Shown here one piece after another: positions 11,431 through 53,555 of a stretch of 64,000 nucleotides of DNA. The notes beneath the pieces are model-generated. The model was not told the DNA's origin. It worked only from the letters and a program-made list of their open reading frames with translations, and made no database searches. The DNA is from an uncultured Gemmatimonadota bacterium (lineage in GTDB: Bacteria; Gemmatimonadota; CAZMKB01). The position numbers and the translations under genes are program-made. How positions within the stretch are numbered: the stretch's first letter is position 1; each line of letters starts with the position of its first letter. The stretch spans positions 26,531 to 90,530 of the forward strand of contig CAZZKG010000003.1 of NCBI GenBank assembly GCA_964654825.1, given 5' to 3'.

Positions 11431-11431
11431 T

Positions 11432-32610: not shown

Positions 32611-33066
32611 CGCTGATACCCCTCCCCGACATACCTGTACGGCACTCTCTGCACGCAAATGTTGTTCCGAGAGTTACAGGCGACCTCATTCGATAATATC
32701 CGCCTCCAGGAGGGATGTCAACCGTAATGTTCTTATGTTGCAATAGTGAATCACCGATAGAACGCTGCCTGGTATTTTTTGCAACTCCGGGAGTGAACTT
32801 TCCGGGTTCTCCAATGGTACCAATATACAGGAATGAACCGCTGTGGTCGATTCCCCGAGAAATGAAGAGTAGTATCCATGTCCCGTACCAACCGGTCGGT
32901 CCGGGTAGTCCCAATAATATTAACAGTTTGGCGTGGTTCGTTTTCCCCCGATGCAGGGAATTTCTGACTGCCCGCAAAAAAGAGGATTTATCACGACAGG
33001 GCCTCCCCGGATGGCATAGATTTTGCGATTTTTACAAGAAAGCCATAATTTTTTGGAGGTTGCCTT

Positions 33067-37700: not shown

Positions 37701-37835
37701 TTCTTCTTCGATGATGAATGCGTCGTAGTAACTCGATACGAGGAGAATATCCCTCAGCTTGAACGGCATGAGCGTGTGAAACATTTTACTGAGCTGCTCG
37801 TAATCCCCCTCGAAGTTGTTATTCCGTTTTATCAT
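34797..37835 (-). CDS. PEP/pyruvate-binding (pyruvate,water-dikinase-like) protein with N-terminal pseudo-receiver domains
   Basis: N-terminus has two receiver-like folds lacking the Asp-Asp pocket (DILLVSSYY, DLVITMSKNIGMDPF). Central PPDK_N-like ATP-grasp motif (LAIRSSGLLEDSHHHPFAGLYSTY). C-terminal PEP-utilisers-like segment. GGAGGAA RBS 9 nt before the ATG at 37835. About 1012 aa. Confidence 0.6.
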   Translation of the reverse strand: MIKRNNNFEGDYEQLSKMFHTLMPFKLRDILLVSSYYDAFIIEEEGLISELLIGQYRHLLLSSPPRVIRVNSAKKALSKLEEQRYDLVITMSKNIGMDPFNFGKKVKELYPTLPVILLAIDSADIRLVQKKYDVKRVDKAFFWTGDPTLFLAIIKYVEDMMNAKNDTQNGNVRVLIMLEDSIRYYSLFLPIFYIEIVKQTQRAISEDMNEMQQLLTRRARPKILLAETFEEGVALFEQYKEYVQGIISDVTFKRNGKEDSEAGFEFCRLIKKESENIPVLMQSSDPKNREKAEAIGTYFLDKHSSGLLQDFQHFLLNHIGFGDFIFLVPKKKKSGKGRKKKIKPTETVHEETIEIARASTIHEFVKKIQEVPLESIQFHAERNHFSNWLFARCEFKPALKMRPKKAGDFTDLHEVRKYLLEVFRESRREKQLGVITNFAQQKYEFESSFTRLTGDSLGGKGRGIAFMRSLLGRYNLEKKYKGINITIPSTVVIGTLEFDRFIKDNNLLRFAERTDMSDREIAKAFLKGKLHKELKDKLSLVLQHFRTPLAIRSSGLLEDSHHHPFAGLYSTYMLPNNHRNSRVRLKHLSRAIKLVYASVFFNEPREYITSTSSNVEEEKMAVIVQELVGTDFGGRFYPTFSGVAQSYNFYPVSHQTFEDGVACLAVGLGRAVVGGEKVLRFSPEYPEIIPEFSSKELILENAQTDLYVLNTARDDFELTERDDSTLKKLNINSIKSDGTLDLIASTYDSTDGVIRDGFSGTGAPLVTFAGILKYKTFPLADILKDVLRIGQRGMGCPVELEFAVHFDPEKQKNPTFSILQVRPLIPSMELCEISASEFTSANNVFIHSDKALGIGAIDSIRDIVYVSQKTFDVSKTVRIAEEIGKVNRKLAASSTPYVLIGPGRWGTQDRWLGIPVKWSQISGVFVMIETAFEGFMIEPSQGTHFFQNIVSKGIGYIYTTQGSKNSFIDWDWLESLHEVKALNYVKHVHLESPLLIRIDGKCGRALIEKPAE

Positions 37836-38048
37836 GAAAAATGATTCCTCCGATGCCCCAATACCTGTGCGTGTGTTCGTTCCAAGAATATATGGATGAC
37901 GGGGGATGCGGTCAACCGCCTGGAAACGCACAATTCCGGCCAGCTTACTAAACCCCTTCAGGTAAATTGATCTGTTCATAAATACGGTGACGCATCGATG
38001 GCCTGAGACATTAGTATTTATGAACAGGGCCACTAAGTCGATAAATAG

Positions 38049-38159: not shown

Positions 38160-39515
38160 ATGTCGGAAGCCGTTGATGCCTTCATGGCGATGGTCAAGGC
38201 AAAAGATCCCGCCCAGCCTGCGTTTCACCAGGCCGTGTTCGAGGTGGTCAACTCACTTTTGCCGTTTATCGAAAAAAATCCAAAATATCAGAAAGCAAAG
38301 ATCCTCGAACGTATCGTCGAGCCCGAGCGTGTCATCATGTTCCGGGTACCCTGGCTCGATGACAGGGGTGATGTCCAGGTCAACAGGGGATTCCGTATCG
38401 AGATGAACAGCGCGATCGGTCCCTACAAGGGCGGACTTCGTTTCCACCCATCAGTCAATCTGGGCATCCTCAAGTTCCTGGCCTTCGAACAGGTTTTCAA
38501 GAACAGCCTCACCACACTCCCGATGGGTGGGGGCAAGGGTGGTTCAGATTTCGATCCGAAGGGGAAGAGTGACAATGAAGTGATGCGGTTCTGCCAGAGT
38601 TTCATGACGGAACTGTGCCGCCACATCGGGCCGAATACGGATGTACCGGCCGGTGATATCGGTGTCGGTGGCAGAGAGATCGGTTACCTCTTCGGCCAGT
38701 ATAAAAGGATTCGCAACGAATTTACCGGCGTTCTCACCGGGAAAGGCCGCAACTGGGGCGGCTCGCTGATACGGCCGGAAGCAACCGGATACGGTGCCGT
38801 CTACTTCGCGGCCGAGATGCTGAGTTCCCGTGGCGACACACTCGAAGGCAAGACCTGCCTGGTCTCAGGAAGCGGAAATGTGGCACAGTACACCACCGAG
38901 AAGATCCATGAGCTCGGCGGGAAGGTGGTTACCCTTTCGGACTCGAGCGGGTATATCTATGATGAGTCCGGAGTTGATTCTGACAAACTGGCTTTCGTCA
39001 TGGATCTCAAAAACGCACGCCGCGGCAGGATAAAGGAGTACGCCGATAAGTACAAGGTACCTTTCACGCCGGTCGATTCCGGTCTAGATCACAATCCGCT
39101 CTGGAACCACAAAGCGGATTGTGCATTCCCCTGCGCCACTCAAAACGAAATCAACGGGGAGGATGCCCGGAACCTGGTGAATAACGGAGTGAGTGTCGTC
39201 AGCGAAGGGGCAAACATGCCCACGACCCCGGACGGGATTGACATCTACCTGCAGGAGAAGATCCTCTACGGTCCCGGAAAAGCGGCAAACGCCGGAGGTG
39301 TTGCCGTCTCGGGTCTCGAGATGTCACAGAACTCCCTCAGGCTTTCATGGACCCGTGAGGAGGTCGACCAGCGTCTGCATGGTATCATGAAGGCGATCCA
39401 TGCGCAGTGCGTGGAACACGGGAAAGTCGGTGATTATGTCAATTACGTCGATGGTGCCAATATCGCCGGTTTTATCAAAATCGCTGACACCATGATCGAT
39501 CAGGGAGTGGTGTAA
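38160..39515 (+). CDS. gdhA: NADP-specific glutamate dehydrogenase
   Basis: LPMGGGKGGSDFDPKGKSDNEVMRFCQSFMTEL catalytic motif. Rossmann motif VSGSGNVAQY. 451 aa. Confidence 0.9.
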   Translation: MSEAVDAFMAMVKAKDPAQPAFHQAVFEVVNSLLPFIEKNPKYQKAKILERIVEPERVIMFRVPWLDDRGDVQVNRGFRIEMNSAIGPYKGGLRFHPSVNLGILKFLAFEQVFKNSLTTLPMGGGKGGSDFDPKGKSDNEVMRFCQSFMTELCRHIGPNTDVPAGDIGVGGREIGYLFGQYKRIRNEFTGVLTGKGRNWGGSLIRPEATGYGAVYFAAEMLSSRGDTLEGKTCLVSGSGNVAQYTTEKIHELGGKVVTLSDSSGYIYDESGVDSDKLAFVMDLKNARRGRIKEYADKYKVPFTPVDSGLDHNPLWNHKADCAFPCATQNEINGEDARNLVNNGVSVVSEGANMPTTPDGIDIYLQEKILYGPGKAANAGGVAVSGLEMSQNSLRLSWTREEVDQRLHGIMKAIHAQCVEHGKVGDYVNYVDGANIAGFIKIADTMIDQGVV

Positions 39516-39549: not shown

Positions 39550-39581
39550 GAGGCAGGCTCCTGAAGCCTGCCTCTTTTTTT
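39550..39581 (+). terminator. rho-independent terminator after gdhA
   Basis: GAGGCAGGC (39550-39558) pairs with GCCTGCCTC (39566-39574), followed by TTTTTTT. Confidence 0.7.
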
Positions 39582-39767: not shown

Positions 39768-39805
39768 TTGACAAAATGGCAACATGTGTGCTATCATTTT
39801 GTCAA
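39768..39805 (+). promoter_or_regulatory. sigma-70-like promoter (TTGACA-18bp-TATCAT) overlapped by a perfect 11-bp inverted repeat (TTGACAAAATG ... CATTTTGTCAA)
   Basis: The inverted-repeat arms at 39768-39778 and 39795-39805 bracket the -35/-10 elements. A putative operator upstream of the histidine kinase gene. Confidence 0.45.
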
Positions 39806-39844: not shown

Positions 39845-42505
39845 ATGATCAAGCCTGATGAGATCCTTGAATCTCTCGTCACGGTTATGGCAGATAGCTC
39901 GAACCTGGATTCCCTCATGGTTGCTTCACTCGACCTCCTTATCAAAGTGTCCCGAGCCAGTGGAGGGTATCTTCGGGTTGTCGATGCGGCAGGGGAGGGG
40001 AAGACTGTCAGAAAACATTTCTCCCGCGAAGCCTTTCAAATGGTGAACAAACCGGAGTATCAAAACGGCAAGGTCAAAGCCGGGGTCATGAGTACTTCGA
40101 CGGGAAAAGTCCTCATATTTCTCTTCTGTGAGAATGAAACGCAGACCGGGTTTGTTGCCCTTGACTACCGGAGTAGGTCCGTCTCATCGATCGATAATAA
40201 TACCGGCTCGATGGAGACACTTGTCCGGCTCATCGGTTACCAGATCGTGTCCAGATGTCAGGCCGAGATGATGCACAGGAGATACGAAGAGTACAAACGG
40301 GTGATCGAGAAAGCACCGATCGGTATATTGATTTTCGACCACAGCGGCAAGCTGACTTCGATCAACCCGTTCCACACATCCGGACTTCCTGCCCACCGGG
40401 GTAAAGATCTCATCCGGACCACAAACGTGTTACATGATGAATCAATCAAACAGGCGGGACTTCTGAATTATTTCAAAAAACTCCTCGGGGGCGAACCGTT
40501 CGAGCTCTTCAATCACCCTTACACGACCATGTTCATGAAGAAAAATGTCTTTGTGGATGTCCGGGGTGTTCCCCTGATCGGTAGCGAGGGAAAGATAGAG
40601 GGCGGTATCGTTCTGATCAACAATGTGACCGAAAAGGCATGGCTCGAAGAGGAGCTCAGGAATTCCCGTGATCATCTCGAAAACATCATTAACAGTATCG
40701 ACAATGAGATCATCGTCGTCGATCGAAACCACACGATTCAGCTCGTGAACAACGCCTATATCAGAAATTACAATCTGGAAAGCTCTTCTCTCATCGGCAT
40801 GAAGTGCTACTACGTGAGTCACGGAAAAAAGGAGCCATGTACACTCGAAAACAGGGAGTGCCCGGTGAGTAACGTCTTCGCTGATGGTAGGACACGGACG
40901 ATGATTCACCGTCATCAGGGGAAACACGGACCGAGGTCGGTCGAGGTCACCTACACTCCCCTGAAGGACTCGGAGGGTGAAGTTGTTAATGTCATCATCG
41001 TCGCTCAGGATATCACGGAGAGGCTGGTTCTCGAGGTCGAGAGGGAGAAGACCAGGGAGGAATTGAGAGCAGTGTTCGAAGGTATTACCGATTCCATCAT
41101 GGTAATAGACCGGGATTTGAAGATCATCAAAGCCAACAGCGGAAGCGGCCTCCTCTACCACCTGAGAACGGATGACATCATCGGGAAAAAATGTCTCGAT
41201 GTCATAAGAGGGAGCGGTGGAGGGTTTCTCGATTGCCCTGCCGAGAAAACATTCAAAACCGGCCACCCGCTCACACTCTCTGACTGTCTGCTCGAGATAG
41301 CGAACCAGAAGTTATACGCTGATCTGTTCACCTACCCCTCATTCGATCAGGATGGCAACATCTCACATGTAATCATGTACATCCGCGATGTCACGGAGAG
41401 GAAGCTGCTCGAACGCAAATACAGGGACAGGGAAGCTCTGCTTGCGAACATCAGCTCCGACTCCGCTGATGCGATTTTCAGCCTGGACGACGATGACATC
41501 ATCACCTCCTGGAACAAAGGTGCCCAGAAAATGTTCGGGTACGAGGAGAAGGAGGTCGTCGGGAAGAACATCGAATTACTCATCCCCGAGGAGGGGAAGA
41601 AGCAGTTCGAAGAGATTCGGACGATACTGTACCGGGAGGGTTTCGTCAGAAACGTCGAAGCCCGCTGGCAGACGAAGGACGGGCGTGAAGTGGAAATCAT
41701 TTTTACGCGAACTACCCTCACCGATGCCGATGGAAATGTCGTGGGGAGCTCCATCGTGATTAAGGACATCTCCCGTCTGAAAGAGATGGGCCGTGAGCTT
41801 ATTCATGTGGAAAAGCTTGCAGTTCTCGGTAAGATGTCGGCCACCGTGGCACACGAGATCAGAAATCCCCTGGGTTCCATTACACTCAACCTGGATATTC
41901 TGGAGGAGGAAATCGGTGCAGCCGGGGAGAAGCAGGACCCCATCATCCCCGAGCTCTTGTCCTCGATCAGATCCGAGCTCAAACGGCTCTCGCTGATATC
42001 CGATGACTATCTCCGTTTCACGAGGTATCCAAAAGTGAACCTCGCCATGATTGCGTTCGACGACCTCATTGCCGGGGCTGTCGGGCCGCTGAGGGCCCAC
42101 CTCGAGTCGAGGGGCATCGACCTCGAGATTGTTCCGGAGGATGGGACAGGTGTGATCTCAGTTGATGAATATCAGATCGTCCAGGCACTGAGGAATCTGA
42201 TTATCAACGCATCGGAGGCCATGCCCGAACCCGGCACAATCACCATAAAGTACGCAAGACATGAAGATATCGCTGTCATTCAGGTATCTGATACCGGTGT
42301 TGGGATACGCTCCACGGATCTGAACATGATTTTCGATCCTTTTTTTACGACCAAGGAGAAGGGTACCGGTCTGGGCTTGTCCATCGTGAAACAGATTATC
42401 GAACTGCATGGTGGAAAGATCGAATGTGAGAGTACCCCGGGAAAGGGAACCGGTTTTACGCTTCGTTTTCCTGTCATGGAACCTGCTCCCGGAGAAGCCA
42501 GGTGA
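39845..42505 (+). CDS. multi-PAS/GAF sensor histidine kinase
   Basis: GAF-like N-terminus and several PAS-like segments. H-box VAHEIRNPLGSITLNL. HATPase_c (DTGVGIRS...GTGLGLSIVKQIIELHGG). Stop overlaps the next gene start as GTGA. Confidence 0.85.
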   Translation: MIKPDEILESLVTVMADSSNLDSLMVASLDLLIKVSRASGGYLRVVDAAGEGKTVRKHFSREAFQMVNKPEYQNGKVKAGVMSTSTGKVLIFLFCENETQTGFVALDYRSRSVSSIDNNTGSMETLVRLIGYQIVSRCQAEMMHRRYEEYKRVIEKAPIGILIFDHSGKLTSINPFHTSGLPAHRGKDLIRTTNVLHDESIKQAGLLNYFKKLLGGEPFELFNHPYTTMFMKKNVFVDVRGVPLIGSEGKIEGGIVLINNVTEKAWLEEELRNSRDHLENIINSIDNEIIVVDRNHTIQLVNNAYIRNYNLESSSLIGMKCYYVSHGKKEPCTLENRECPVSNVFADGRTRTMIHRHQGKHGPRSVEVTYTPLKDSEGEVVNVIIVAQDITERLVLEVEREKTREELRAVFEGITDSIMVIDRDLKIIKANSGSGLLYHLRTDDIIGKKCLDVIRGSGGGFLDCPAEKTFKTGHPLTLSDCLLEIANQKLYADLFTYPSFDQDGNISHVIMYIRDVTERKLLERKYRDREALLANISSDSADAIFSLDDDDIITSWNKGAQKMFGYEEKEVVGKNIELLIPEEGKKQFEEIRTILYREGFVRNVEARWQTKDGREVEIIFTRTTLTDADGNVVGSSIVIKDISRLKEMGRELIHVEKLAVLGKMSATVAHEIRNPLGSITLNLDILEEEIGAAGEKQDPIIPELLSSIRSELKRLSLISDDYLRFTRYPKVNLAMIAFDDLIAGAVGPLRAHLESRGIDLEIVPEDGTGVISVDEYQIVQALRNLIINASEAMPEPGTITIKYARHEDIAVIQVSDTGVGIRSTDLNMIFDPFFTTKEKGTGLGLSIVKQIIELHGGKIECESTPGKGTGFTLRFPVMEPAPGEAR

Positions 42506-43893
42506 AGAAAAAGAGTGATAAAACCGGAAATGATCACAAGGTCGTACTGATCGTCGAGGATGACGACAGTGTCAGAAGAAGCATCGATATTTCCTTGAAG
42601 CGGGCCGGATACGGGACCCTGATCGCAGAGAATGGTGACCAGGCGATCACTGCGTTGAGGAACAGGTATGTCCACCTTGTCCTTACGGATCTCAGGATGC
42701 CCAAAACCGACGGGCTCGAACTGCTGAGAGCCGCGAAAGTGATCAGACCGGAGGCCGAGGTCATCGTGATGACCGCGTATGGAACAATCGAGACCGCGGT
42801 CGAGGCGATGAAAGTCGGCGCGTACGATTTTATAGAGAAACCGTTCAACCGCCAGACGCTCCTGGCACTCGTGAGAAAAGCTCTCGAGAAACAGTCACTC
42901 GTCGTCGAGAACAGGTTGCTCAGGAAAAAACTCGAGGGGCTCGAGGACAAGCCGCTGTTCATCGGAAAATCCAGGGCTTCGAGAGGAGTTCTGAGGCTGG
43001 CCGAGCAGGTCGCAGCCAGTAAAGCAACCGTGCTCATCCAGGGGAAAAGCGGGACGGGGAAGGGTCTGGTCGCGAAACTCATTCATGAACTGAGCGACCG
43101 GAGGGGAGGACCGTTCGTGCACATCAGCTGTGCCGCCATTCCCGAAACGCTCCTCGAAGCGGAACTCTTCGGATACGAGAGGGGTGCCTTTACCGGAGCG
43201 ATCGCACGGAAGGAAGGCCGGTTCGAAATGGCGGCCGGTGGCTCGATCTTTCTCGACGAGGTGGGCGAAGCGCCACCTTCCACGCAGGTGAAACTCCTGA
43301 GGGTCCTTCAGGAGGGAGAATTCGAACGCCTCGGCGGCAAGAGGACCTTGAAATCCGATGCGCGTGTCATCGCCGCGACGAATCGGAATCTCCTCGAAGC
43401 GATGCAGGCCAATATGTTCAGGGAAGATCTCTATTACCGGCTCAATGTGATCACCATCACCCTTCCCACTCTCAGTGAGAGGACGGAAGACATACCGCTT
43501 CTGGCGCATCACTTCCTCAGCCACTACGCGAGGAAGAACGGCAAACGGGTGAAAGGGGTATCCCAGGATGTGCTCGACCTGTTCAACGACTACATATGGC
43601 CCGGCAACATCAGGGAACTCGAAAATGTAATCGAACGCGCCGTCGTTATCAGCCAGGACGAGTACATCGATGTTGCCGATCTGCCCGATGAGCTCAGGAG
43701 GCGGAGGATACCGACCGATAAAGTGCTCCATATCCCGATCGGTACGAGTCTGAGAGAGACGAAGAAACTGCTCATCCTCGAAACTCTGAAGCACACAAAC
43801 GGCGACAAGGGGACATCGGCAAAAATCCTCGGCGTGGCGACCAGGACCATCTACCGTCTCCTGGAAGAAGAGAAAGACAAAAAGAAGAACTGA
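42502..43893 (+). CDS. sigma-54-dependent response regulator (NtrC family: receiver + AAA+ + HTH)
   Basis: Receiver (VLIVEDDD, HLVLTDLRMPKTDG). Walker A GKSGTGKGLVA. GAFTGA motif. ESELFGHE-like ELFGYERGAF. C-terminal Fis-type HTH. Confidence 0.9.
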   Translation: MKKKSDKTGNDHKVVLIVEDDDSVRRSIDISLKRAGYGTLIAENGDQAITALRNRYVHLVLTDLRMPKTDGLELLRAAKVIRPEAEVIVMTAYGTIETAVEAMKVGAYDFIEKPFNRQTLLALVRKALEKQSLVVENRLLRKKLEGLEDKPLFIGKSRASRGVLRLAEQVAASKATVLIQGKSGTGKGLVAKLIHELSDRRGGPFVHISCAAIPETLLEAELFGYERGAFTGAIARKEGRFEMAAGGSIFLDEVGEAPPSTQVKLLRVLQEGEFERLGGKRTLKSDARVIAATNRNLLEAMQANMFREDLYYRLNVITITLPTLSERTEDIPLLAHHFLSHYARKNGKRVKGVSQDVLDLFNDYIWPGNIRELENVIERAVVISQDEYIDVADLPDELRRRRIPTDKVLHIPIGTSLRETKKLLILETLKHTNGDKGTSAKILGVATRTIYRLLEEEKDKKKN

Positions 43894-43916: not shown

Positions 43917-43932
43917 TGGCACAATAGTTGCT
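43917..43932 (+). promoter_or_regulatory. sigma-54 (-24/-12) promoter: TGGCACA-atag-TTGCT
   Basis: Exact match to the consensus TGGCACG-N4-TTGCW. GG at 43918-43919 and GC at 43930-43931. 100 bp upstream of the CDS at 44033 and immediately downstream of the NtrC-type activator gene. Confidence 0.6.
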
Positions 43933-44032
43933 CTCCGCCTAAATATAACGTGTCCTCCTGCCGGGATCTCGCTGATTTTTTCTTCTTCTCCCCGGTGGGC
44001 ATACTGAACACTTCCCATGCGGATTACATCTC

Positions 44033-44452
44033 ATGGAGAAACTCTCCCGGGCAATCCTCATCGAACCCGATGCCCTCTTCAGAGAAGCACTGAAGAAAGT
44101 TCTTGAGAGAGAAGGGTTTAAGGTTCTCGAGGCATGTTGTCTGGGTGAGGCCCTCCCCCTGATTCTCGGGTCGAACGTGTCCCTGATCACCACGGAGTTA
44201 AAACTCCCGGACTCGGAGGGACCGGAGACGATTGACCGGCTCCTCGACGTATCACCGGATTCTCAGGTGATCATCCTCACCGCCTTTCCCGAGCTGATAC
44301 CGAATGGCGGTTCTGATCGTTATTCCATTGAAAACGTTATATTTATGAGGAAACCGGTCGGTTTGAAGGATCTCCTCGAGAGAATCTCCTGTCCCCAAGC
44401 GGCGAAAACCCAGAAAATGAAAGACAAAATGTCAGGCGAAATCTCCTCATGA
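44033..44452 (+). CDS. receiver-like domain protein with non-canonical phosphorylation site (Asp->Glu)
   Basis: AILIEPDAL in place of DD. LITTELKLPDSEG in place of the LxxDxxMP phospho-acceptor Asp. Conserved T (IILTAF) and K (MRKPV). Confidence 0.5.
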   Translation: MEKLSRAILIEPDALFREALKKVLEREGFKVLEACCLGEALPLILGSNVSLITTELKLPDSEGPETIDRLLDVSPDSQVIILTAFPELIPNGGSDRYSIENVIFMRKPVGLKDLLERISCPQAAKTQKMKDKMSGEISS

Positions 44453-44628
44453 GAGTTGATTTTGCCTGAATGTCGCATCCGGAGGTTTTCTCACCTCACT
44501 TCTGTCAGACTGAAGTTGGAGTTGCTGAGGAATATCCTCCCGATCGAGAATCGCTTATGTAATAACTTGGGATATAAGTAGTTAGAGAATATACTCACAG
44601 CCTCGACAGTGTTGATTCCTGGCACGAT

Positions 44629-44644
44629 GGTTGCTTCTCTCTCA
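44629..44644 (+). promoter_or_regulatory. sigma-54 (-24/-12) promoter: TGGCACG-atgg-TTGCT
   Basis: Perfect consensus. GC at 44642-44643 lies 27 bp upstream of the ATG at 44671 of the first NHL gene. Confidence 0.65.
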
Positions 44645-44670: not shown

Positions 44671-45618
44671 TTGATTTTCTCTGTATCTCACAGACTGATT
44701 ATTTCCGCATTTCTACTGGTTATCGGGACTGTCGGGGCGGACCTTTTTGCCGAACCTGACGTCACAGTCGAAAATGTCACCTACGGTAAGTCACAGAACC
44801 TCATCTTTCAGGCCCCGAGCAGCATCTATTATGATACCAGAAAAGCCGAGATCTATGTCACCGACTCGGGCAACGCTTCTGTTCTCATTTTTAATAGCCA
44901 GGGCAGTTTTCTCTTCAGTTTCAGACACTGGGTGAAGCGGGACGGCAGAGTGATACCCGGCGAGCCCAGAGATATCGTCGTGTCAGGACGCGGGTACATG
45001 TACCTCACCGATGCTCTCTCCCGGGAGATCGACATCATCAGCGTGAGGGGTGAGAAGATAGAGACGATCGATCCCGGAGATTACAAACCTTACCGTGACA
45101 AAGTAGTGTATCCGCAGTACATGGCGATCGACCCGGCTGACACATTGTATGTCACCATTGATGGAGATGTCAAAGAGGTCCTCGTTCTGGATCCCGAGCT
45201 GAGGTTCGTGAGATCGATCACAGGCACCGGAGGCGGATTCGGGGTCCTCACCGGGATAGCGCTCGATGAGTCGGGCAGGGTGCTGGTCACAGACATCGAA
45301 GGGCCCGAATGCGTGCAGGTTTACTCCCGGGCCGGCGAGTTTCTCTTCGGTTTCGGCGTCAAAGCAATAGGTGATGAGAATTTTTCCCATCCTCACGGTC
45401 TCGCCGTCACCTCGGAGGGAGACATCTGGGTCGTCGACTCGTTCCGGCAGGTCGTCAAAAGATTTACACGTGATGGTACGTTCAAGGAAATGGTCGGTGG
45501 GTTCGGATTCAGGCCCGGTGATCAGCAGTATCCGATCGGGATAGACTCGGATCAGAAAGACAGGATTTTTGTCGCAGAGAAAGTTGGTCGCAGGTTTCAA
45601 ATACTGCGGGCTCACTAG
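44671..45618 (+). CDS. secreted NHL-repeat (six-bladed beta-propeller) protein
   Basis: Signal peptide. Repeated blades of the form IYVTD..., LYVTIDGD, RVLVTDIEG, IWVVDSF and RIFVAEK. Confidence 0.75.
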   Translation: MIFSVSHRLIISAFLLVIGTVGADLFAEPDVTVENVTYGKSQNLIFQAPSSIYYDTRKAEIYVTDSGNASVLIFNSQGSFLFSFRHWVKRDGRVIPGEPRDIVVSGRGYMYLTDALSREIDIISVRGEKIETIDPGDYKPYRDKVVYPQYMAIDPADTLYVTIDGDVKEVLVLDPELRFVRSITGTGGGFGVLTGIALDESGRVLVTDIEGPECVQVYSRAGEFLFGFGVKAIGDENFSHPHGLAVTSEGDIWVVDSFRQVVKRFTRDGTFKEMVGGFGFRPGDQQYPIGIDSDQKDRIFVAEKVGRRFQILRAH

Positions 45619-45686
45619 TGTTCTGTCCGCAGAAAATGGACTCGGGCGGTGCCTGGGAACGTTACCACGAAAGGAGGTGAAGTAGA

Positions 45687-46721
45687 TTGAGGAGATTCAC
45701 AACTGGGGTCGTCGGAGCAGTGGCTGTACTCGCTCTTGCAAGTTTTGCCTTCGCGGGTGACTACCATCATGGTAGTACACTCAACTGCTCCGAATGTCAT
45801 GTTATGCACTACAGTCAGTCTCACGGTTATGATGGTGGTGGAGTATTCACTCCGCTGGGCCCTGACGGTCCATACGAATATCTCTTGAGAAATGAGATAA
45901 ACGACCTGTGTCTCACCTGCCACGACGGACAGACATTCGCTCCGGACGTCTTTGAAGCAGGCACGCAGGTTGGACTGGTCAGGCAAGCCGGTGCGCTGAG
46001 TGAGGTGGGTGGACCTTCGCCCTACGAGGAGACAAACGGTCACACTCTCGGGACGACGGATGCTCCTCCTGGAAATGATGCAGGCTGGACACCGGATCCG
46101 GACCAGGGTCTGACATGTACAGACTGCCATCAACCTCACGGTTACGGCGGTCCGACGGATGATCCATACAGGAACCTCAGCCCGAACTCGGGCGGCGGTT
46201 TCCACGCGTCCGTCACCTACGCTGTCGGAACGAATGATCTCGCCATGGACACCTACGAAAGGGTGAATTCAGGGTCGGATCACTATTCCTTCGACAACGT
46301 AGACTTCAACGAGCCTGATCCCACGGGGTCCGGTTACGCCGCCTGGTGTAAGACCTGTCACACACTGTTCCACGGTGACAAGGGCGGCAGCGAGGTCGGC
46401 GGTGCCACAGGCGAAGAGTGGTTGAGGCACCCTCAGGCGGATGCCGACGTCGGTGATGTCGGTGGTGGACATTCAAGCGCTGATGTTTTTGTGGCTGATG
46501 ATGTCTATCCGAAGGTGATGACCGCTACAGAGAACTGGGCACCAACTGACCCGGCTGATGTGACGGATCACACGCCATCGTGCTTCTCGTGCCACAAAGC
46601 CCACGGGAACCAGAATCCCTTCGGGCTTATCTTCCTGGGGACAACCCTCCCCATTACGGAAGAGGGCACGGGCGACGGAGTGTATGTAACACTCTGTCAA
46701 CAGTGCCACGTGCAGGGTTAG
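45687..46721 (+). CDS. multiheme c-type cytochrome (6 CxxCH)
   Basis: Signal peptide. CSECH, CLTCH, CTDCH, CKTCH, CFSCH and CQQCH motifs. Confidence 0.85.
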   Translation: MRRFTTGVVGAVAVLALASFAFAGDYHHGSTLNCSECHVMHYSQSHGYDGGGVFTPLGPDGPYEYLLRNEINDLCLTCHDGQTFAPDVFEAGTQVGLVRQAGALSEVGGPSPYEETNGHTLGTTDAPPGNDAGWTPDPDQGLTCTDCHQPHGYGGPTDDPYRNLSPNSGGGFHASVTYAVGTNDLAMDTYERVNSGSDHYSFDNVDFNEPDPTGSGYAAWCKTCHTLFHGDKGGSEVGGATGEEWLRHPQADADVGDVGGGHSSADVFVADDVYPKVMTATENWAPTDPADVTDHTPSCFSCHKAHGNQNPFGLIFLGTTLPITEEGTGDGVYVTLCQQCHVQG

Positions 46722-46737
46722 TAATCCCTGTTGATCG

Positions 46738-46775
46738 AGGGGGGTGCTGGTGGTGATCGCACCCCCTTCCTTTGT
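46738..46775 (+). terminator. stem-loop terminator after the 6-haem cytochrome gene
   Basis: GGGGGGTGC (46738-46746) pairs with GCACCCCC (46758-46765), followed by TTCCTTTGT. Confidence 0.5.
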
Positions 46776-46797
46776 AAGGATTTTTCGGACAATTTAA

Positions 46798-47715
46798 ATG
46801 ATGAGATGTATTACAATGTTTTCGCTTCTCCTCCTCCTCGTGGTGAACACGGGTGCCGAATCTCAGATACTTCACTTCTCCCTCACCGAACGGTACGCGC
46901 TCTCCACCTTCCCCGGGGAGGGTGGCTTCGGGAGGATTTCCGACGTTTCCTACAGTCTCGATCTCGACGAGATTCTGGTGGCTGATGAGGTGAGGAGGAG
47001 AATTTTCACCTTCAAATCGGACGGCACTCCCGAGCAGGCTCTGGGAGTCGCCACCGATATCCCGCCGCCGTCTGCGACGGTTCCTGGTGGGGATGGGAAG
47101 GTCTATATCGTCGAGGCCCGGACGGGCAAGCTTTTTACGCTGAATCGTGTTGAAGGAGAACAAGTTGTTCCATTTCGAATAACCGGTGAAAAAATCATGG
47201 ATGAGGTCCGTGTGAGCGGTCTGGTGAGAAGCCGGGCGGGTGTTCTTTACCTTGTTACCGATGACGGGAAACAGATCATCATGTGTGATGGGGAGGGGCA
47301 TTACCGCGGGATGAGTGACCGGGGAGTGAGGCTCGGGAGGCTCATCGCGATCGATGTCGATGACCGTGGGAGGATCATCGCCGCGACCCGTGGATTGATC
47401 CCCCTCCGACTGTTCGATGGTTCGGGTTCTTTTTTGAGGAATATCGAGATCAGGGATCTCGCGACGGATATGTCGAGATCCGAGATCGGAGGTGTCGCAT
47501 TCGATGCCCAGGGGAGGGTGTGGCTCACATACCCCGTGGATGGTCTCGTCAGGGTGTTCGATGAAACCGGAACGCTTCTGGACGAGATCGGGAGCTCGGA
47601 GATACCCGGCGGACTTTTTTCCCCGGCTGATATCGAGATCACCCCGATGGGCGATTTACTTATCCTCGAACGGGGATCGAACCGGGTACGCTGTTTCTCG
47701 ATGGAATTACAGTGA
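46798..47715 (+). CDS. secreted NHL-repeat beta-propeller protein
   Basis: Signal peptide. Blades KVYIVEARTG, VLYLVTDDG, RIIAATRG, RVWLTYPVDG and DLLILERG. Confidence 0.7.
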   Translation: MMRCITMFSLLLLLVVNTGAESQILHFSLTERYALSTFPGEGGFGRISDVSYSLDLDEILVADEVRRRIFTFKSDGTPEQALGVATDIPPPSATVPGGDGKVYIVEARTGKLFTLNRVEGEQVVPFRITGEKIMDEVRVSGLVRSRAGVLYLVTDDGKQIIMCDGEGHYRGMSDRGVRLGRLIAIDVDDRGRIIAATRGLIPLRLFDGSGSFLRNIEIRDLATDMSRSEIGGVAFDAQGRVWLTYPVDGLVRVFDETGTLLDEIGSSEIPGGLFSPADIEITPMGDLLILERGSNRVRCFSMELQ

Positions 47716-48623
47716 AAAATAAATTCTTTCCTGTTGTGATGATACCACTGCTCCTGGTCTCCGTCTTTACAGATGTCGGAGAGGGAATCGCTGAGGTGCG
47801 CCTGCAACTGAAGCCCGCGGCAATGCTCACGGCACCGGGAGCCAGGCTTTCTTCGGTCGCTTACTCCGATGTCTGGGATGAGATCTACGCCGTGGATATG
47901 CTTACCGGGGATATCCTGGTGAGCAAAATGAAATCTCTAAGGTTCGATAAGCTGGAAGTGCGAGGGGAGCTCAAAGCATACGCTCTCACCGTCGGGGATG
48001 AGGATTTTCTGTTCGTCACTGACCTCCGCGGGTCCGGCGTGACCAAGATCACACCCGCTGGGGATATCGTTACGAGAATCGATGTGGGCACGGAAGAGGC
48101 TCCCGGTACCTGTCTCGGCAGGATAAGGACAGGCCCTGAGGGCAGGATCTATGCCGTCGAGCGTTCCGGGGACAGGATTTTTATTTTTGATAACAAGCTC
48201 GAGTCCATGGAGATTGTTCACCTGGGATCCCCGTCCGACACCCTTACGGTCGTGGATCTGACATTCGGTGAAGGCGGGACGATTCTGGCTCTTTCTTCGA
48301 AAGGCCAGGTACTCCGGAAGTTCGATGGTTCTGGAACGTATCTGGGAGGGTTCGGGATCCACAGTACGGACAAGAGCGCATTCTCGCTGCCGAGTGCGAT
48401 CACAAGGGGACCTGATGGTAATCTCTGGATAGTCGACTCCTTCCAGCACACTGTAAAATTGTACTCACAGACTGGTGATTTTCTCTACGCTCTGCTCGAT
48501 ATGGCCGCGTCCGGGAAAGGTCTCTACTTCCCGGTGGACATCGTATTCATCTCGAGGGACCGGGTTGCCTTACTGGACAAGGGATCATCGAGTATAAAGT
48601 TCTTCGAGGTGGAAAGCTCCTGA
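47712..48623 (+). CDS. secreted NHL-repeat beta-propeller protein
   Basis: Overlaps the upstream stop by 4 bp. Blades IYAVDMLTGD, FLFVTDLRG, RIYAVERSGD, NLWIVDSFQH and RVALLDKG. Confidence 0.7.
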   Translation: MKNKFFPVVMIPLLLVSVFTDVGEGIAEVRLQLKPAAMLTAPGARLSSVAYSDVWDEIYAVDMLTGDILVSKMKSLRFDKLEVRGELKAYALTVGDEDFLFVTDLRGSGVTKITPAGDIVTRIDVGTEEAPGTCLGRIRTGPEGRIYAVERSGDRIFIFDNKLESMEIVHLGSPSDTLTVVDLTFGEGGTILALSSKGQVLRKFDGSGTYLGGFGIHSTDKSAFSLPSAITRGPDGNLWIVDSFQHTVKLYSQTGDFLYALLDMAASGKGLYFPVDIVFISRDRVALLDKGSSSIKFFEVESS

Positions 48624-48633
48624 CGGTGATCGT

Positions 48634-50730
48634 ATGACAGGATGGTTCGAAAGAAAAAGCGTTTATTTCGGCCTGGTACTCGTTCTTTCGGCGGGGAACC
48701 TGACCGCCGATGAACATCATGACAGTAATGAGATTCCATGCTCCGACTGTCACACCATGCATTACGGTGACGTCACGTTCGACAGAGAACCGCTGCGCCC
48801 AGGAGGTCCTTTCGAGCACCTCCTGCTGGCGCCGGAGGACGAACTCTGCCTCAGTTGCCACGATGGTACAGATCCCTCCGCTCCGAACGTTGTCTCAGGA
48901 GAAGGGGCGGAGTTGTCCGGAGGGTGGTTCACGCTGGGATCCGGTTCTGATGAGAACGGACATACACTGGGAAGCCGCGAGCTTCCACCGGGGTCGACAC
49001 GCGACCGAGTCGATACGCGATTGCGATGCATCTCCTGCCACGATCCGCACGGGAATAAATATTACCGGAATCTACGCCCGGCTCCCGGGGGAGGGGAAGG
49101 ACCCGGCCTGACATCCGGGAGAGAAACAGCCGGATCGAGTAACACGAGCGTGCTGATGCTGGATGCCTCGGGTGCCTCTAGGTATGCCCCGGAGAGTGTA
49201 CGGTTTCATGGATCGTTACAGACGGGTCAGGGCGCGCACATTTCTGCATGGTGCGGGGGCTGTCACACCATGATGCACGGCGATGGAGGAGATCCGGAAA
49301 TGGGTGGTTCGTTGTACGGGCACCGGGAAGCGAAGACTGTCTGGCTGCAGCATCCGGTAAAAGGTATCCCGATGTCTCTCTCCGTCAAAAACGGACACGA
49401 TGAGAACAGGGGCTGGTTCGAAGATTACGCTTCGAGACTCTCGGTTGCTTCTTCGGGAGAAGTCCCGGGCACTCCGGCTGCGAGCGACAACGAGATTACA
49501 TGCCTCACCTGCCACGCCGCCCACGGCAGCGGTTTTCGTTTCTCCCTCATTTACGACGACGCCGAAACAGTGCTCGAAAGAGACGGTCGGCGATTGAGTC
49601 AGAGCTGCCGGCAGTGCCACCGGTTCGGTCACGAGCCGTTTGAACACACTCTTCACGGTGATCCTGAGAACGGCGTCCAGAGGACAGGTTCACCCGACGA
49701 GCGGGGTGAGTGCAGTCAATGTCACATTATGCATGGCGCGGTCGAGAGCGGTGTTACAGGCGGTGAGGCGTTCCCCTATCTCCTCTTTACCGAAAACGGC
49801 AACAATCTCTGCTACGGAGGAGGCGATGCCGGAGGATGTCACCGTGACAGGCCGTTCAATTATCCGGCGCGGGAAAGCGATCGAATGCCGGAGTATGCGG
49901 ATAATCCCGGTTACTTCGAGTTCAACAACGGCGCCGTTCGCATTCCCGGGGTCAACAAACGCAACCGCTGGCCCGGAGAGCAGGCCTACGAGAACCCTCT
50001 GACGTACAAAGGCGGGAAGTTGTTCTCCCCGCACGCATTCGATCAGGACATGCCGATAGTGGATGAATCCGGACAGGGGGCCTGCCGGAACTGCCACGAT
50101 CCTCACGAGGGTGATGGATCACATGATCTTCTGGTGATGGAATACGGTCCGGTGAGCGGTGCCGGTGAAATCAAAGCCCCGGCAGCGTACGATCTCTGCC
50201 TGGGCTGTCATTCGTTCGAGGGGCCGGTGGGTATGGACATCGAGAACAAATGGATCCGTGACTACTATGATTCATCGATCAACGAGGATCTGACCACCGG
50301 CCACCAGATACGCTTCAATCCCCGTGTAGCCCTGTCATGGCCGAGCAACGTGGAGCTGGGGGACAAGTTGCCATGTTATGACTGTCACAACCCCCACGGT
50401 TCCTGGGGAAATGATGGAACGAATCCGAACGGTTATCTGATCAGCGATGAGAGGCCGGATTGGAGCGGCCTGACCGACACTCTGGATGATCCAGGACAGT
50501 CACGGAGATTCTGCCTCGGCTGCCACATCTCCTCTGATGGCGAAGCGGGTTCACGGTCAGTGGAAGGCATTATCATGAATACGATTTCGAGTCGAAAAGG
50601 CCACTTGTCCTCATCCGGGGCGTCGTGTCATACCTGTCATGGTGGTGATTATTCGACCTCCAACTCATTCAATGTGCATCACCCGGCTGGAGGTGCGGTT
50701 GCCATCGAGAAGGAAAAACAGATCCGTTAG
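48634..50730 (+). CDS. multiheme c-type cytochrome (12 CxxCH)
   Basis: Signal peptide. Twelve CxxCH motifs. The N-terminal CSDCHTMHYG...LCLSCHDG module is shared with the 6-haem and 7-haem cytochromes. Confidence 0.85.
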   Translation: MTGWFERKSVYFGLVLVLSAGNLTADEHHDSNEIPCSDCHTMHYGDVTFDREPLRPGGPFEHLLLAPEDELCLSCHDGTDPSAPNVVSGEGAELSGGWFTLGSGSDENGHTLGSRELPPGSTRDRVDTRLRCISCHDPHGNKYYRNLRPAPGGGEGPGLTSGRETAGSSNTSVLMLDASGASRYAPESVRFHGSLQTGQGAHISAWCGGCHTMMHGDGGDPEMGGSLYGHREAKTVWLQHPVKGIPMSLSVKNGHDENRGWFEDYASRLSVASSGEVPGTPAASDNEITCLTCHAAHGSGFRFSLIYDDAETVLERDGRRLSQSCRQCHRFGHEPFEHTLHGDPENGVQRTGSPDERGECSQCHIMHGAVESGVTGGEAFPYLLFTENGNNLCYGGGDAGGCHRDRPFNYPARESDRMPEYADNPGYFEFNNGAVRIPGVNKRNRWPGEQAYENPLTYKGGKLFSPHAFDQDMPIVDESGQGACRNCHDPHEGDGSHDLLVMEYGPVSGAGEIKAPAAYDLCLGCHSFEGPVGMDIENKWIRDYYDSSINEDLTTGHQIRFNPRVALSWPSNVELGDKLPCYDCHNPHGSWGNDGTNPNGYLISDERPDWSGLTDTLDDPGQSRRFCLGCHISSDGEAGSRSVEGIIMNTISSRKGHLSSSGASCHTCHGGDYSTSNSFNVHHPAGGAVAIEKEKQIR

Positions 50731-52360
50731 TACCGGGATCTGCCTGCTCTTCGCTCTGATCGCGGGATCGGGAGTATTAGGAAGAGCGAGCGGGCAGGCG
50801 AGATTGGGAGGAAGATTGAACCTGTTTTATCAGGAATCGAGGCTGGGAGACCTGTACTCCAGGAATTCCAACCAGAATCTGGATCTAACGATCTACGATG
50901 ATCTCTTTGCGAAGAACATGATTTCCCTGTCATATCTCATGGAACGAAAAACAGGATCCTCCCAGCCGCAGGATTTCCTGAGGCACAGGATCAGATCGAC
51001 CATCACCGGCAGAGCCTTCGTCTTTACTTCCGAGTATTCACCCCCTCACACGCTGAGGGGGACAATCGGGGAAACTTCTCAGAAATCGGACAGGAAGAGA
51101 TTCCTTCTGGGAGTGAATCCCGAGGATTACCCGGTATTCTCACTCTCCTACGACCGATCCGACCGCCACGGCGGAGCCGGCAATTTCAGAGTGGATTCTG
51201 TGAACGAGAACTCACTCGCTGCGACCAGTTATGACTACCGATTTGCCGGCGCACGCGCGACGTTCAGGGAGAGGAAGACCACCAACCACCTGGACACGGG
51301 TCTCAACCGAAGATTGAGTGAAGGCACCGGCGGCGTGACACTGGAAAGCAGGCTTGGCCCAATCGGGAGTTTCATGGCCAGCTATGACGGTCTGCTCTCA
51401 AAGGAAAAATTTGGGGGGAGGGACAGGGCCCGCGTGAGAATCGACAATGTGCGGGGACTCTTCTCTTCGAATCCTGCCAGGTGGCTCACTCTCTCGGCCA
51501 ACTTCCTCGGGTCAATCATTGACAGGGAAAACGAGACCGCCAACAGGACTCTATCGCAGGAGCTCTATACCGCGGCAACGTATCAGCCGAGGGAATACCT
51601 TCAGTTCCAGTTTGCGAGAGACATCAGGGAAACAGAAGAAGACGGCACGACGACACTCTCGGATTATGCGAGGGCCCAGAGTACGATTCAGGGTTATCTG
51701 AGGGACGGCATCCGGGGCAGAGCGTCGATCCAGAGGACATTCGTCATCAAAAGTGAAGAGGGAGCATTTCCGTCGAACGGTTATTTTTTCAACCTGGACA
51801 CCGACTTGATGCCCGGAGCGATACTGGCATTCGATCTCAATGTGACGAAGAGCGAGAATCCCAATGCACAGATCGGCACCTACCAGGTCAGAAAAGTGGT
51901 TGATCTGAGAGGCTTCCCGAGATCCGACCTGTCGATCAATTTCGCGTACCGGACCCTCCAGTTCGGCAACTCTCTCGATCTGCTCGGTTCGAAGACGTAC
52001 GATGTCGAATTAGATCTGAACTACCGGCCGAAACCGAGATTTTCAACAATTCTCACCCTCACCCGGAGCGTCGACAGGCGTGTGCTCGGTGGAGCGGGGT
52101 TGTTTCTGAGCTCCACGACGACATATTCACTGGCCGGTGGAAGTCACCTGAGCTTCATTTACATCCGCCGCGATGTGAGCGGTGCTATTATCCAGACTCC
52201 CGGCGTCAGTGCGCAGGGTACCTATCCCAATAACTATCTCCTCGAACTGGTGATCCTGATGGCACGGCAGACGAGGCTCAGCGTGAAATATGATATCAGG
52301 GATCTCTCCCAGGGCAGCATCAGCACCGTGCTGGGAATAACTTTCATCAAGAGGTTTTAA
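50672..52360 (+). CDS. putative outer-membrane beta-barrel protein (candidate porin partner of the cytochromes)
   Basis: Positively charged n-region followed by a hydrophobic signal segment (TGICLLFALIAGSGVLG). Alternating-polarity strands throughout. C-terminal ...GITFIKRF ending in aromatic Phe. Start uncertain. Overlaps the upstream cytochrome 3' end. Confidence 0.45.
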   Translation: MCITRLEVRLPSRRKNRSVSTGICLLFALIAGSGVLGRASGQARLGGRLNLFYQESRLGDLYSRNSNQNLDLTIYDDLFAKNMISLSYLMERKTGSSQPQDFLRHRIRSTITGRAFVFTSEYSPPHTLRGTIGETSQKSDRKRFLLGVNPEDYPVFSLSYDRSDRHGGAGNFRVDSVNENSLAATSYDYRFAGARATFRERKTTNHLDTGLNRRLSEGTGGVTLESRLGPIGSFMASYDGLLSKEKFGGRDRARVRIDNVRGLFSSNPARWLTLSANFLGSIIDRENETANRTLSQELYTAATYQPREYLQFQFARDIRETEEDGTTTLSDYARAQSTIQGYLRDGIRGRASIQRTFVIKSEEGAFPSNGYFFNLDTDLMPGAILAFDLNVTKSENPNAQIGTYQVRKVVDLRGFPRSDLSINFAYRTLQFGNSLDLLGSKTYDVELDLNYRPKPRFSTILTLTRSVDRRVLGGAGLFLSSTTTYSLAGGSHLSFIYIRRDVSGAIIQTPGVSAQGTYPNNYLLELVILMARQTRLSVKYDIRDLSQGSISTVLGITFIKRF

Positions 52361-52959
52361 TGGAGAGAATATTTTCGAAAATCGATTTGAGAGGCCTGAA
52401 AGTTGCAGTTTTTCTTGTACTTATCCTGTCAGTACAGCAGTGTGGAGGTCCCCGGAGGTTCGTGCACCCCGAGGCCGATGTCTCGTACTACGAGCGGCTT
52501 GGCCTGCTGTCGTTCGAGAACCTCGCCACTGACCGGGTCGCAGGTGAAAAAGTCACCAACGCGTTCCTCACGGAACTGTTGATCTCGAAGCGGTTCGAGG
52601 TCGTGGAGCCAGGCAGGGTCAACAGGGCCTCGAGAGAGCTCGGGCTTCCTTCTCCACTCATAGGCGGCGAGCTCACGCCCGAGGAGGTCAAGGAACTGGG
52701 TGAGCAACTCGGGGTCGAGGCGCTTTTGAGGGGTGTGGTTCGTGAATATGAGATGGTACGCATCGGGCAGACACAGTACCCGCTGGTCACCCTCGACATC
52801 GAATTGCTGGACGTAGCGACCGGGACCACCGTCTGGGTTATCAGTCATACGAAAAAGGGAGGTCCCAACCTGCCCTTCGTCAGTGTTGGAGAAACGTTCA
52901 CCCTTGGAGAACTGTTGCAGGAAATATGTCACGATATCGTATCGAAAATCCCGAAATAA
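52360..52959 (+). CDS. lipoprotein, LpoB/TolB-N-like fold (putative)
   Basis: Signal peptide with Cys (LSVQQCGG). Pattern LLSFENLATD...FEVVEP...LG..LGVEALLRGVVREYE resembles the LpoB/CsgG/TolB-N fold family. Paralogous to the next gene. Confidence 0.4.
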   Translation: MERIFSKIDLRGLKVAVFLVLILSVQQCGGPRRFVHPEADVSYYERLGLLSFENLATDRVAGEKVTNAFLTELLISKRFEVVEPGRVNRASRELGLPSPLIGGELTPEEVKELGEQLGVEALLRGVVREYEMVRIGQTQYPLVTLDIELLDVATGTTVWVISHTKKGGPNLPFVSVGETFTLGELLQEICHDIVSKIPK

Positions 52960-53555
52960 GACGAATCAGGTACCCGATCCTGATCTTCGCGCTCCTCTTG
53001 TTGATCTGTTCCGGTTGCGGACCGACACCGCGGACTTACCTGAACGATGATATCAATACACTTCAGGGGTACCGTGTAGCGCTCTTGCCACTCGACAACC
53101 TTAGTGGAGTGGACGGTGCCACCGAGAAGATCGATGAGCTTCTTCTCGTCGAGCTGCTGAGGACCGGCTCTTTCCAGGTCATCGAACCCGGGGAAGTCGA
53201 AAGGGTGCTCCTGGAACTGAGGATCCGGAGGACCTCCGAGCTTTCTCTGGAAGATATGACTGCGGTCTCCCAGCGGTTGAATGCGGATGCTCTCCTTGTG
53301 GGGTCGGTGCTCGAATACGGTAGAAAAGAATCGAGATCAATCGGCGGTGGACAGGTCCCCAGTATCACCATTGTACTCAGACTGGTGGATGTCAAAAACG
53401 GACAGGTCCGGTGGGCGTCCTCACACTCGAGGACCGGTGATGATGCGGAAAAGGTGTTTGGGATCGGGAGGATCAGGGATCACAGCAGACTCAGTAGAGA
53501 GATCGTCAAAGAGATGCTCGAATCATTAGAGCTGACAGTATCGGCACAGAAATGA
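52926..53555 (+). CDS. lipoprotein, LpoB/TolB-N-like fold (paralog)
   Basis: Lipobox-like LLICSGCG. VALLPLDNLSG...FQVIEPGEV...ADALLVGSVLEYG parallels the previous protein. Confidence 0.4.
   Translation: MSRYRIENPEIRRIRYPILIFALLLLICSGCGPTPRTYLNDDINTLQGYRVALLPLDNLSGVDGATEKIDELLLVELLRTGSFQVIEPGEVERVLLELRIRRTSELSLEDMTAVSQRLNADALLVGSVLEYGRKESRSIGGGQVPSITIVLRLVDVKNGQVRWASSHSRTGDDAEKVFGIGRIRDHSRLSREIVKEMLESLELTVSAQK

Follow-up and report, generated by a model that had tools for sequence, protein, structure and literature searches.

A conserved pair of very likely sigma-54 promoters in a module that probably controls a multihaem-cytochrome cluster of an uncultured Gemmatimonadota bacterium

The textbook two-component, enhancer-dependent sigma-54 system is that of NtrB/NtrC and the promoter glnAp2 in enteric bacteria, where NtrC sites also overlap the sigma-70 promoters glnAp1 and glnLp of the regulatory operon. 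In this study, we analysed a 64-kb stretch of DNA, hereafter the window (positions 26,531 to 90,530 of contig CAZZKG010000003.1, assembly GCA_964654825.1), from an uncultured Gemmatimonadota bacterium; Candidatus Glassbacteria, which is close to the source lineage, is placed in Gemmatimonadota by GTDB. The window holds two predicted sigma-54 promoters, P1 and P2, beside the genes of a histidine kinase and an NtrC-type activator and in front of a large cluster of NHL-propeller and multihaem-cytochrome genes. The likeness to NtrB/NtrC extends to the kinase gene adjoining that of an activator with receiver (REC), AAA+ and helix-turn-helix (HTH) domains, to the -24/-12 promoter, to several candidate activator sites on one helix face upstream of it, and to candidate activator sites that overlap a sigma-70-type promoter of the regulatory operon. 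The window's system differs in that its kinase is a multi-PAS protein, its candidate activator boxes (TTGACAAAATGTC) are unlike the NtrC site, its presumptive targets are cytochromes and not nitrogen-assimilation genes, and it includes an extra gene, predicted to be sigma-54-driven, for a pseudo-receiver.

Sigma-54 control of cytochromes is itself not without precedent. RpoN regulons that include electron-transfer cytochromes have been described, and in Geobacter sulfurreducens the sigma-54-dependent response regulator BccR controls the cytochrome operon cbcBA (bioRxiv 10.1101/2021.04.15.440034). As in the window, that activator is encoded beside a cytochrome operon with a -24/-12 promoter, and the operon holds a further response-regulator gene. 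However, the BccR/cbcBA arrangement is divergent whereas that of the window is tandem, the lineages are unrelated, and BccR acts on a bc-type cytochrome of the inner membrane, in an operon that lacks both NHL proteins and giant multihaem cytochromes; the comparison is one of arrangement. Clusters combining NHL propellers with multihaem cytochromes are known from Tenderiales, Gallionella and Geobacter. Those of Tenderiales (Uet) and Gmet_0556 likewise encode a putative outer-membrane barrel along with NHL propellers and multihaem cytochromes, a likeness of gene content, although their haem counts and gene order differ from those of the window (6, 12 and 42 haems); sigma-54 regulation is not described in the literature consulted on them. 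The module described here is well supported and of the ordinary enhancer-dependent kind, a familiar switch in a new setting, with no new regulatory principle. Its novelty lies in the lineage, in the boxes themselves and in the conserved, apparently sigma-54-driven, Glu-type pseudo-receiver. Our analyses provide a regulatory map that can be tested, naming the promoters, candidate enhancer boxes, probable activator and likely autoregulation of a large NHL/multihaem-cytochrome cluster, in an uncultured lineage of essentially unknown physiology. The main elements of the module are:

39845-42505, plus strand: cytoplasmic histidine kinase with at least three PAS domains, HisKA and HATPase_c (domain profiles)
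42502-43893, plus strand: NtrC-family enhancer-binding response regulator with REC, AAA+ and probable Fis-type HTH domains (profiles, motifs)
43917-43932, plus strand: P1, predicted sigma-54 -24/-12 promoter, TGGCACAATAGTTGCT (exact pattern, matrix score, conservation)
44033-44452, plus strand: single-domain pseudo-receiver of 139 aa with Glu55 at the phospho-acceptor position (profile, alignment)
44620-44635, plus strand: P2, predicted sigma-54 -24/-12 promoter, TGGCACGATGGTTGCT (exact pattern, matrix score, conservation)
44671-58360, plus strand: putative P2 operon (gene gaps of at most 76 nt, or overlaps)

P1 and P2 are very likely real sigma-54 promoters. Both match TGGCAC-N5-TTGCW, with a GG-to-GC spacing of exactly 10 bp, and they are the only matches to that pattern on the two strands of the window, where 0.05 would be expected; none of 100 dinucleotide-preserving shuffles reached two matches. 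When up to two mismatches were allowed there was no excess (15 sites versus 17.8 expected), and because that count is not above chance it is P1 and P2 alone that stand out. A sigma-54 weight matrix, which is an approximation of published promoter frequencies and has a maximum possible score of 21.6 bits, ranked P1 and P2 first and second on both strands of the window (19.7 and 18.7 bits), the next match scoring 13.8 bits. In 30 shuffled windows the best matrix score averaged 14.4 bits and never exceeded 17.6 bits. Both sites are intergenic and each is oriented towards the next gene. Transcription from P1 is predicted to start at ~43943, giving a 5' leader of ~90 nt ahead of the receiver-like gene, and that from P2 at ~44646. 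Short motifs can arise by chance, and the third- and fourth-best matrix matches do look like noise, so we considered whether P1 and P2 might be chance matches without function. This is scarcely credible: the two observed matches compare with 0.05 expected, both score above all shuffle maxima, and both are kept at equivalent intergenic positions in five lineages, a conservation by which chance is effectively refuted.

The first-pass annotation of this DNA had reported two such promoters. Its first site, at 43917-43932, was recovered by our pattern search, whereas its second, given as 44629-44644, was placed nine bases too high (the true position is 44620-44635), and its distance of 27 bp from that site to the first NHL gene becomes 35 nt when measured from the end of the P2 motif to the TTG start at 44671. 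It had described both sites as exact matches to TGGCACG-N4-TTGCW, which is correct for P2 only, P1 having A for G at the weakly conserved seventh position. The weight-matrix scan that it had proposed as a check was run on the 64-kb window and returned P1 and P2 as the two top scores.

The strongest argument for P1 and P2 being functional is their phylogenetic footprint. Relatives were found via the receiver-like protein and the first NHL protein, and yielded four further syntenic lineages, such that the lineages compared were the window, L005/L006 (the same lineage as L017, 'Candidatus Glassbacteria bacterium b2.sp1_bin.52'), L007, L008/L009/L036 and L010. Across these four, the receiver-like proteins are 46–56% and the NHL proteins 63–64% identical to those of the window, and the order kinase, activator, receiver-like gene, NHL gene, cytochromes is kept in every lineage, being visible in L010 from the activator onwards, as that contig starts inside the activator gene. 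A high-scoring sigma-54 motif is present at both equivalent intergenic positions in all five lineages, those of the relatives being:

L006: P1 at 5560, TGGCATGATAGTTGCT; P2 at 6260, TGGCACAATGATTGCT
L007: P1 at 5197, TGGCATGATTGTTGCT; P2 at 5899, TGGCACAATGATTGCT
L008: P1 at 5338, TGGCATTATCTTTGCA; P2 at 6021, TGGCACAATGATTGCC
L010: P1 at 1113, TGGCATAGTAGTTGCT; P2 at 1825, TGGCACACTGATTGCT

In both intergenic alignments TGGCA and TTGC are invariant, in surrounding DNA that averages 57–60% column identity. A conserved block of this kind could also be the operator of some other DNA-binding protein, with the cluster transcribed by read-through from the promoter of the kinase/activator operon (P0, described below). 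The window contains no rpoN gene, which is in keeping with that explanation, and the activator, receiver-like and NHL genes have no terminator-like hairpin between them, because of which some read-through from the activator gene towards the NHL gene is possible. The two activators with intact GAFTGA that the window encodes speak indirectly for an rpoN gene in the genome. Against it, 10 of 10 instances keep the positions critical for sigma-54 (TGGCA, the 10-bp GG-to-GC spacing and TTGC) while the central spacer varies, TGGCA-N6-TTGC is not palindromic and every instance points along the genes, and the adjoining gene encodes an activator with an intact GAFTGA loop. We know of no role for a GAFTGA-type activator without sigma-54. 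We therefore regard operators of another protein as very improbable and continue with P1 and P2 as sigma-54 promoters.

Upstream of P2 is a candidate enhancer consisting of two TTGACAAAATGTC boxes. The features between the end of the receiver-like gene and the first NHL gene are:

44421-44435, plus strand: candidate enhancer box 1, AAGACAAAATGTCAG, within the last codons (D-K-M-S) of the receiver-like gene (alignment)
44462-44476, plus strand: candidate enhancer box 2, TTGCCTGAATGTCGC, degenerate in the window and TTGACAAAATGTC in L007 (alignment)
44501-44507, plus strand: conserved T-TGTC element (TCTGTCA in the window), ~40 bp past box 2
44559-44584, plus strand: conserved AT-rich block (GTAAT...GTTA) between the candidate enhancer and P2
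44658-44664, plus strand: AGGGGTC, an invariant ribosome-binding block a few bases ahead of the start codon, TTG or GTG (alignment)

The geometry of these boxes is nearly constant. Box 1 and box 2 are 41 bp apart in each of the five lineages, and box 2 lies 158, 157, 158, 157 and 159 bp from the TGG of P2 in the window, L006, L007, L008 and L010, respectively. The latter distance corresponds to ~15 helical turns and is kept though the intervening DNA has diverged, with the centres of the boxes ~180–220 bp from the P2 start site. Such a fixed and phased arrangement is as predicted for an enhancer that loops to a sigma-54 closed complex. The core of box 1, GACAAAATGTCA (44423-44434), is invariant in the five-lineage P2 alignment, and the window has three copies of the 9-mer GACAAAATG where 0.59 would be expected, a count reached by two of 100 shuffles; all three are inside the regulatory module and have equivalents in the same places in the relatives. 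Box 1 also appears to be constrained at the DNA level, because the GAC and TCA codons of its D-K-M-S stretch are identical in all five lineages while in the activator gene only 11% of invariant residues use one codon throughout. The otherwise variable C-terminal tail of the receiver-like protein keeps the D-K-M-S peptide in five of five lineages, a conservation that is probably due to the DNA site. Possibly, the T-TGTC element, whose second base is T in L007 and L008, is a third half-site. The AT-rich block is 70–95% AT in all five lineages and in three of them has, at the same position, a weak match to WATCAANNNNTTR (one or two mismatches); it may be a DNA-bending site of the integration host factor (IHF) kind.

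The possibility that the stretch from box 1 to box 2 encodes an RNA hairpin or terminator was rejected, as the outer pairs of this structure are only the invariant palindromic parts of the boxes and its inner stem has three weakly covarying pairs, a consensus energy of -6.9 kcal/mol and no T-run. Rfam gave no match across the 64-kb window.

The adjoining kinase and activator genes are at the coordinates given to them in the first-pass annotation (39845-43893 for the pair). The kinase had been described there as a PAS/GAF protein, but domain profiles identified PAS domains only and no GAF domain; its best NCBIfam model is AtoS, at a score under that model's cut-off. The activator combines Response_reg (97 bits), Sigma54_activat (226 bits), AAA_lid and a weak HTH_8 match in Pfam, and it retains Asp63 in 'LVLTDLRMP', the Walker A motif GKSGTGKG (181), GAFTGA (228) and the Walker B motif IFLDEV (249). 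Among the lineages, the HTH region (SAKILGVATRTIYR) hardly varies. The earlier label of NtrC-type is apt for this architecture, but the protein is not an NtrC orthologue because it scores below the NCBIfam equivalog cut-offs for NtrC (TIGR01818; 423 versus 558.6 bits), AtoC (448 versus 714 bits) and ZraR (398 versus 760 bits). The closest solved structures are NtrC-family activators of Aquifex aeolicus (PDB 4l4u and 1ny5; E = 5e-112 and 2e-106), which match over the full length of REC, AAA+ and HTH; this is a similarity of sequence only, and the targets and DNA sites of those activators are unrelated to the window's module.

Based on its co-conservation with the TTGACAAAATGTC boxes, and on the occurrence of the same box at the regulator's own promoter, we infer that this activator binds the boxes. 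A different enhancer-binding protein might instead activate P1 and P2, either that encoded at 61155-62564 or one encoded elsewhere, in which case the boxes would belong to another factor. A second kinase/activator pair does flank the cluster (60041-62564), and the HTH_8 match of its activator scores 60.3 bits versus 19.3 bits for the upstream activator, the latter being under the Pfam cut-off of 22. In addition, no box was found in the 1.1–1.4 kb upstream of P1. However, the upstream pair and the promoters stay together in every lineage covering the region, and boxes lie also on that pair's own promoter, whereas a 71%-identical orthologue of the second activator, in the locus L038, adjoins an RND efflux operon that has its own sigma-54-like site, and this 21-kb locus has no NHL/cytochrome cluster. 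Because that orthologue adjoins efflux and not cytochrome genes, and because the second activator has an HTH unlike the conserved one of the upstream activator, the latter appears to be the better candidate, and we consider activation by another protein unlikely. The sigma-54-like site of L038 (CTGGTACGCCTGTTGCT, 11534-11550) follows the activator orthologue and precedes the RND efflux operon within a locus spanning 8871-17710; in the window, no RND efflux operon follows the second pair at 60041-62564.

The model that we propose starts from what is observed, namely the DNA motifs with their conservation and spacing, the motifs in the proteins and the shared gene order, and adds by inference a binder of the boxes, a signal, DNA looping and a role for the pseudo-receiver. 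The multi-PAS kinase (39845-42505) would sense an intracellular signal, probably redox-related, and phosphorylate Asp63 of the adjoining activator (42502-43893). The activated protein would then assemble on the boxes at 44421-44476, which lie on one DNA face, 41 bp apart and ~15 turns from P2, and loop over the AT-rich stretch, such that ATP and the GAFTGA loop would open the sigma-54 closed complex at P2. With P2 open, a 14-kb operon would be expressed that encodes NHL propellers, multihaem cytochromes and a putative porin, and P1 would co-induce the single-domain Glu pseudo-receiver, whose probable role is to modulate the kinase/activator pair independently of phosphorylation. The operon of that pair would start at a sigma-70 promoter (39768-39797) that lies under two boxes, and so would be autoregulated. 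The module thus probably switches on both the small receiver-like protein, which is non-phosphorylatable, and the large cytochrome cluster. That two sigma-54 promoters and an adjoining kinase/activator pair form an enhancer-dependent module had been put forward in the first-pass annotation, and it gains strong support here from the five-lineage conservation, the boxes and the activator motifs, although the word 'complete', used there for the module, goes further than these results; the search for upstream activator sites that it had also suggested yielded candidate boxes for P2, the nearer one 157–159 bp upstream, and no box in the 1.1–1.4 kb upstream of P1.

We consider it likely that P1 and P2 are functional sigma-54 promoters and also that the phosphorylated activator, bound to the boxes, opens P2. 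Several results weigh against that joint reading. Besides the lack of rpoN in the window and the sub-threshold HTH_8 match of the activator, the statistics have few independent comparisons behind them, as only five lineages were compared. The window's own box 2 is degenerate (TTGCCTGAATGTC), and the activator is linked to the boxes by co-conservation only. The box weight matrix, with which nothing else in 64 kb scores comparably, was built from the same sites that it scores and is circular for them. For P1, which is conserved as well as P2 is, the 1.1–1.4 kb of coding DNA upstream contains no box with three or fewer mismatches and no high matrix score, and the activator gene upstream of P1 has no run of three or more identical codons across the five lineages and no excess of synonymous conservation.

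The suggestion that the activator autoregulates its own kinase/activator operon derives from the same box occurring twice over the promoter P0, and from the analogy with NtrC at glnAp1 and glnLp. The parts of P0 are:

39768-39797, plus strand: P0, predicted sigma-70-type promoter, TTGACA, 18 nt, TG-n-TATCAT (11 of 12 consensus positions, extended -10)
39768-39782, plus strand: box A, TTGACAAAATGGCAA, overlapping the P0 -35 (box search, conservation)
39791-39805, minus strand: box B, TTGACAAAATGATAG on that strand, overlapping the P0 -10 (box search, conservation)

Boxes A and B form an inverted pair with a start-to-start offset of 23 nt in four of four lineages, and the 40-bp block TTGACAAAATGGCAA-N-TG-n-TATCATTTTGTCAA is kept in all four lineages that cover the region. 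The stretch 39777-39792 (TGGCAACATGTGTGCT), ahead of the kinase gene, resembles a weak sigma-54 site but was rejected as a third one: L007 and L008 have GG where the '-12 GC' should be, and the block is accounted for by a sigma-70 promoter (TTGACA, 18-nt spacer, extended -10) instead.

The receiver-like protein encoded between P1 and P2 scores 46.5 bits with Response_reg and is 133–139 aa long across the lineages. As had been noted earlier, its phospho-acceptor Asp is replaced by Glu, 'SLITTELKLP' aligning to 'LVLTDLRMP' of the activator; Glu occupies the acceptor column in five of five lineages ('LITTEL' or 'LIITEI'), and E11, D13, T83 and K107 are retained. Among Asp-less receivers, Glu is the commonest replacement of the acceptor and is often discussed as a (partial) phosphomimetic (PMC12632262, PMC4395418). 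The window's protein is like those known pseudo-receivers in having a receiver fold with the acceptor Asp changed to Glu, and differs in that it is stand-alone, has its other active-site residues intact and is encoded between two predicted sigma-54 promoters in a two-component module. It is a clear-cut case from nature of a single-domain pseudo-receiver with a conserved Glu, in what is very likely a sigma-54 circuit, and bears on how bacterial pseudo-receivers work. That it feeds back on the kinase or activator is our hypothesis. The fold of the P1 leader RNA is unremarkable (z = -1.9), and the leader sequence is not conserved in the P1 alignment.

The boxes nearest to P1 are those 485–512 bp downstream of it. 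NtrC-type enhancers work from a distance and also from downstream, and for that reason one enhancer could be shared by P1 and P2. Tentatively, and as a possibility that we would rate well short of even, a single enhancer might serve both promoters (lying ~160–200 bp upstream of P2 and ~500 bp downstream of P1), and the Glu pseudo-receiver might act as phosphorylation-independent feedback by binding either the kinase or the REC domain of the activator, tuning an extracellular-electron-transfer operon in Glassbacteria-like bacteria.

The putative P2 operon, a close-packed run that reaches at least 58360, contains three NHL beta-propeller genes, cytochrome genes with 6, 12, 42 and ~7 CXXCH motifs, a 573-aa protein with a barrel-like C-terminus, two LpoB/CsgG-like proteins (52360-52959 and 52926-53555) and one small unknown. 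The 42 CXXCH motifs are carried by a protein of 1035 aa (54019-57126). The 573-aa protein (50639-52360) has no Pfam or NCBIfam match and ends in ...GITFIKRF, and its sequence suggests an outer-membrane beta-barrel, a putative porin. Together with the 42-CXXCH protein and the NHL propellers, it looks like a porin-cytochrome conduit. Downstream, the best terminator-like hairpin is found past a tetrahaem c554-like gene:

59151-59173, plus strand: best terminator-like hairpin downstream of the cluster, past the tetrahaem c554-like gene at 58484-59077

This tetrahaem gene may lie outside the P2 operon, because its L038 neighbours are contiguous without an intervening cluster. In L038 (17770-21380), the NTP-transferase and GAF-kinase genes directly adjoin the c554-like cytochrome and MobB genes. 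Their counterparts in the window (14617-17563 and 58484-59858) are ~41 kb apart, with the regulatory module and the cytochrome cluster between them.

More distant NHL/cytochrome clusters (L011–L016, with NHL proteins 36–38% identical) have no kinase/activator/receiver trio and no upstream sigma-54-like motif. This joint absence counts in favour of the proposed model, while on the promoters themselves such clusters are uninformative. In one of them, L015, genes for a different kinase, of the HAMP kind, a sigma-54 activator and a Peptidase_M54 protein (774-4319) precede the cluster, and there is no sigma-54-like motif of more than 6 bits in front of its NHL gene. Scans of genome and metagenome contigs for more lineages returned only L006 (as L017), L008 (as L036) and unrelated proteins. 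Of the four orthologous lineages, a word-indexed search using the receiver-like protein (139 aa) as query recovered only one, and the NHL protein encoded next to it led to the rest; searches of this kind readily overlook proteins that are short and divergent. The public calls of the first NHL gene in L008 (6001-7044) and L007 (6001-6903) conflict with the AGGGGTC block and its GTG or TTG start, that of L008 being over-extended, as it begins upstream of P2 (6021-6036), and that of L007 too short.

Upstream, the module is separated from the preceding gene by a hairpin:

38160-39515: glutamate dehydrogenase gene (domain assignment)
39550-39574, plus strand: terminator-like hairpin with T-run, 3' of the glutamate dehydrogenase gene, separating it from the regulatory module

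Also adjoining the module, on the minus strand at 34797-38033, is a gene for a 1078-aa protein of unusual architecture, with a weak receiver domain and PPDK_N (PEP-utilising, ATP-binding). The third-best sigma-54 matrix match (ATGGCATAGATTTTGCG, 33011-33027, 13.8 bits) lies 39 nt 5' of the ATG of a GHL15-like gene (33067-34722); its score is inside the range of the shuffled maxima, and it may be a chance match.

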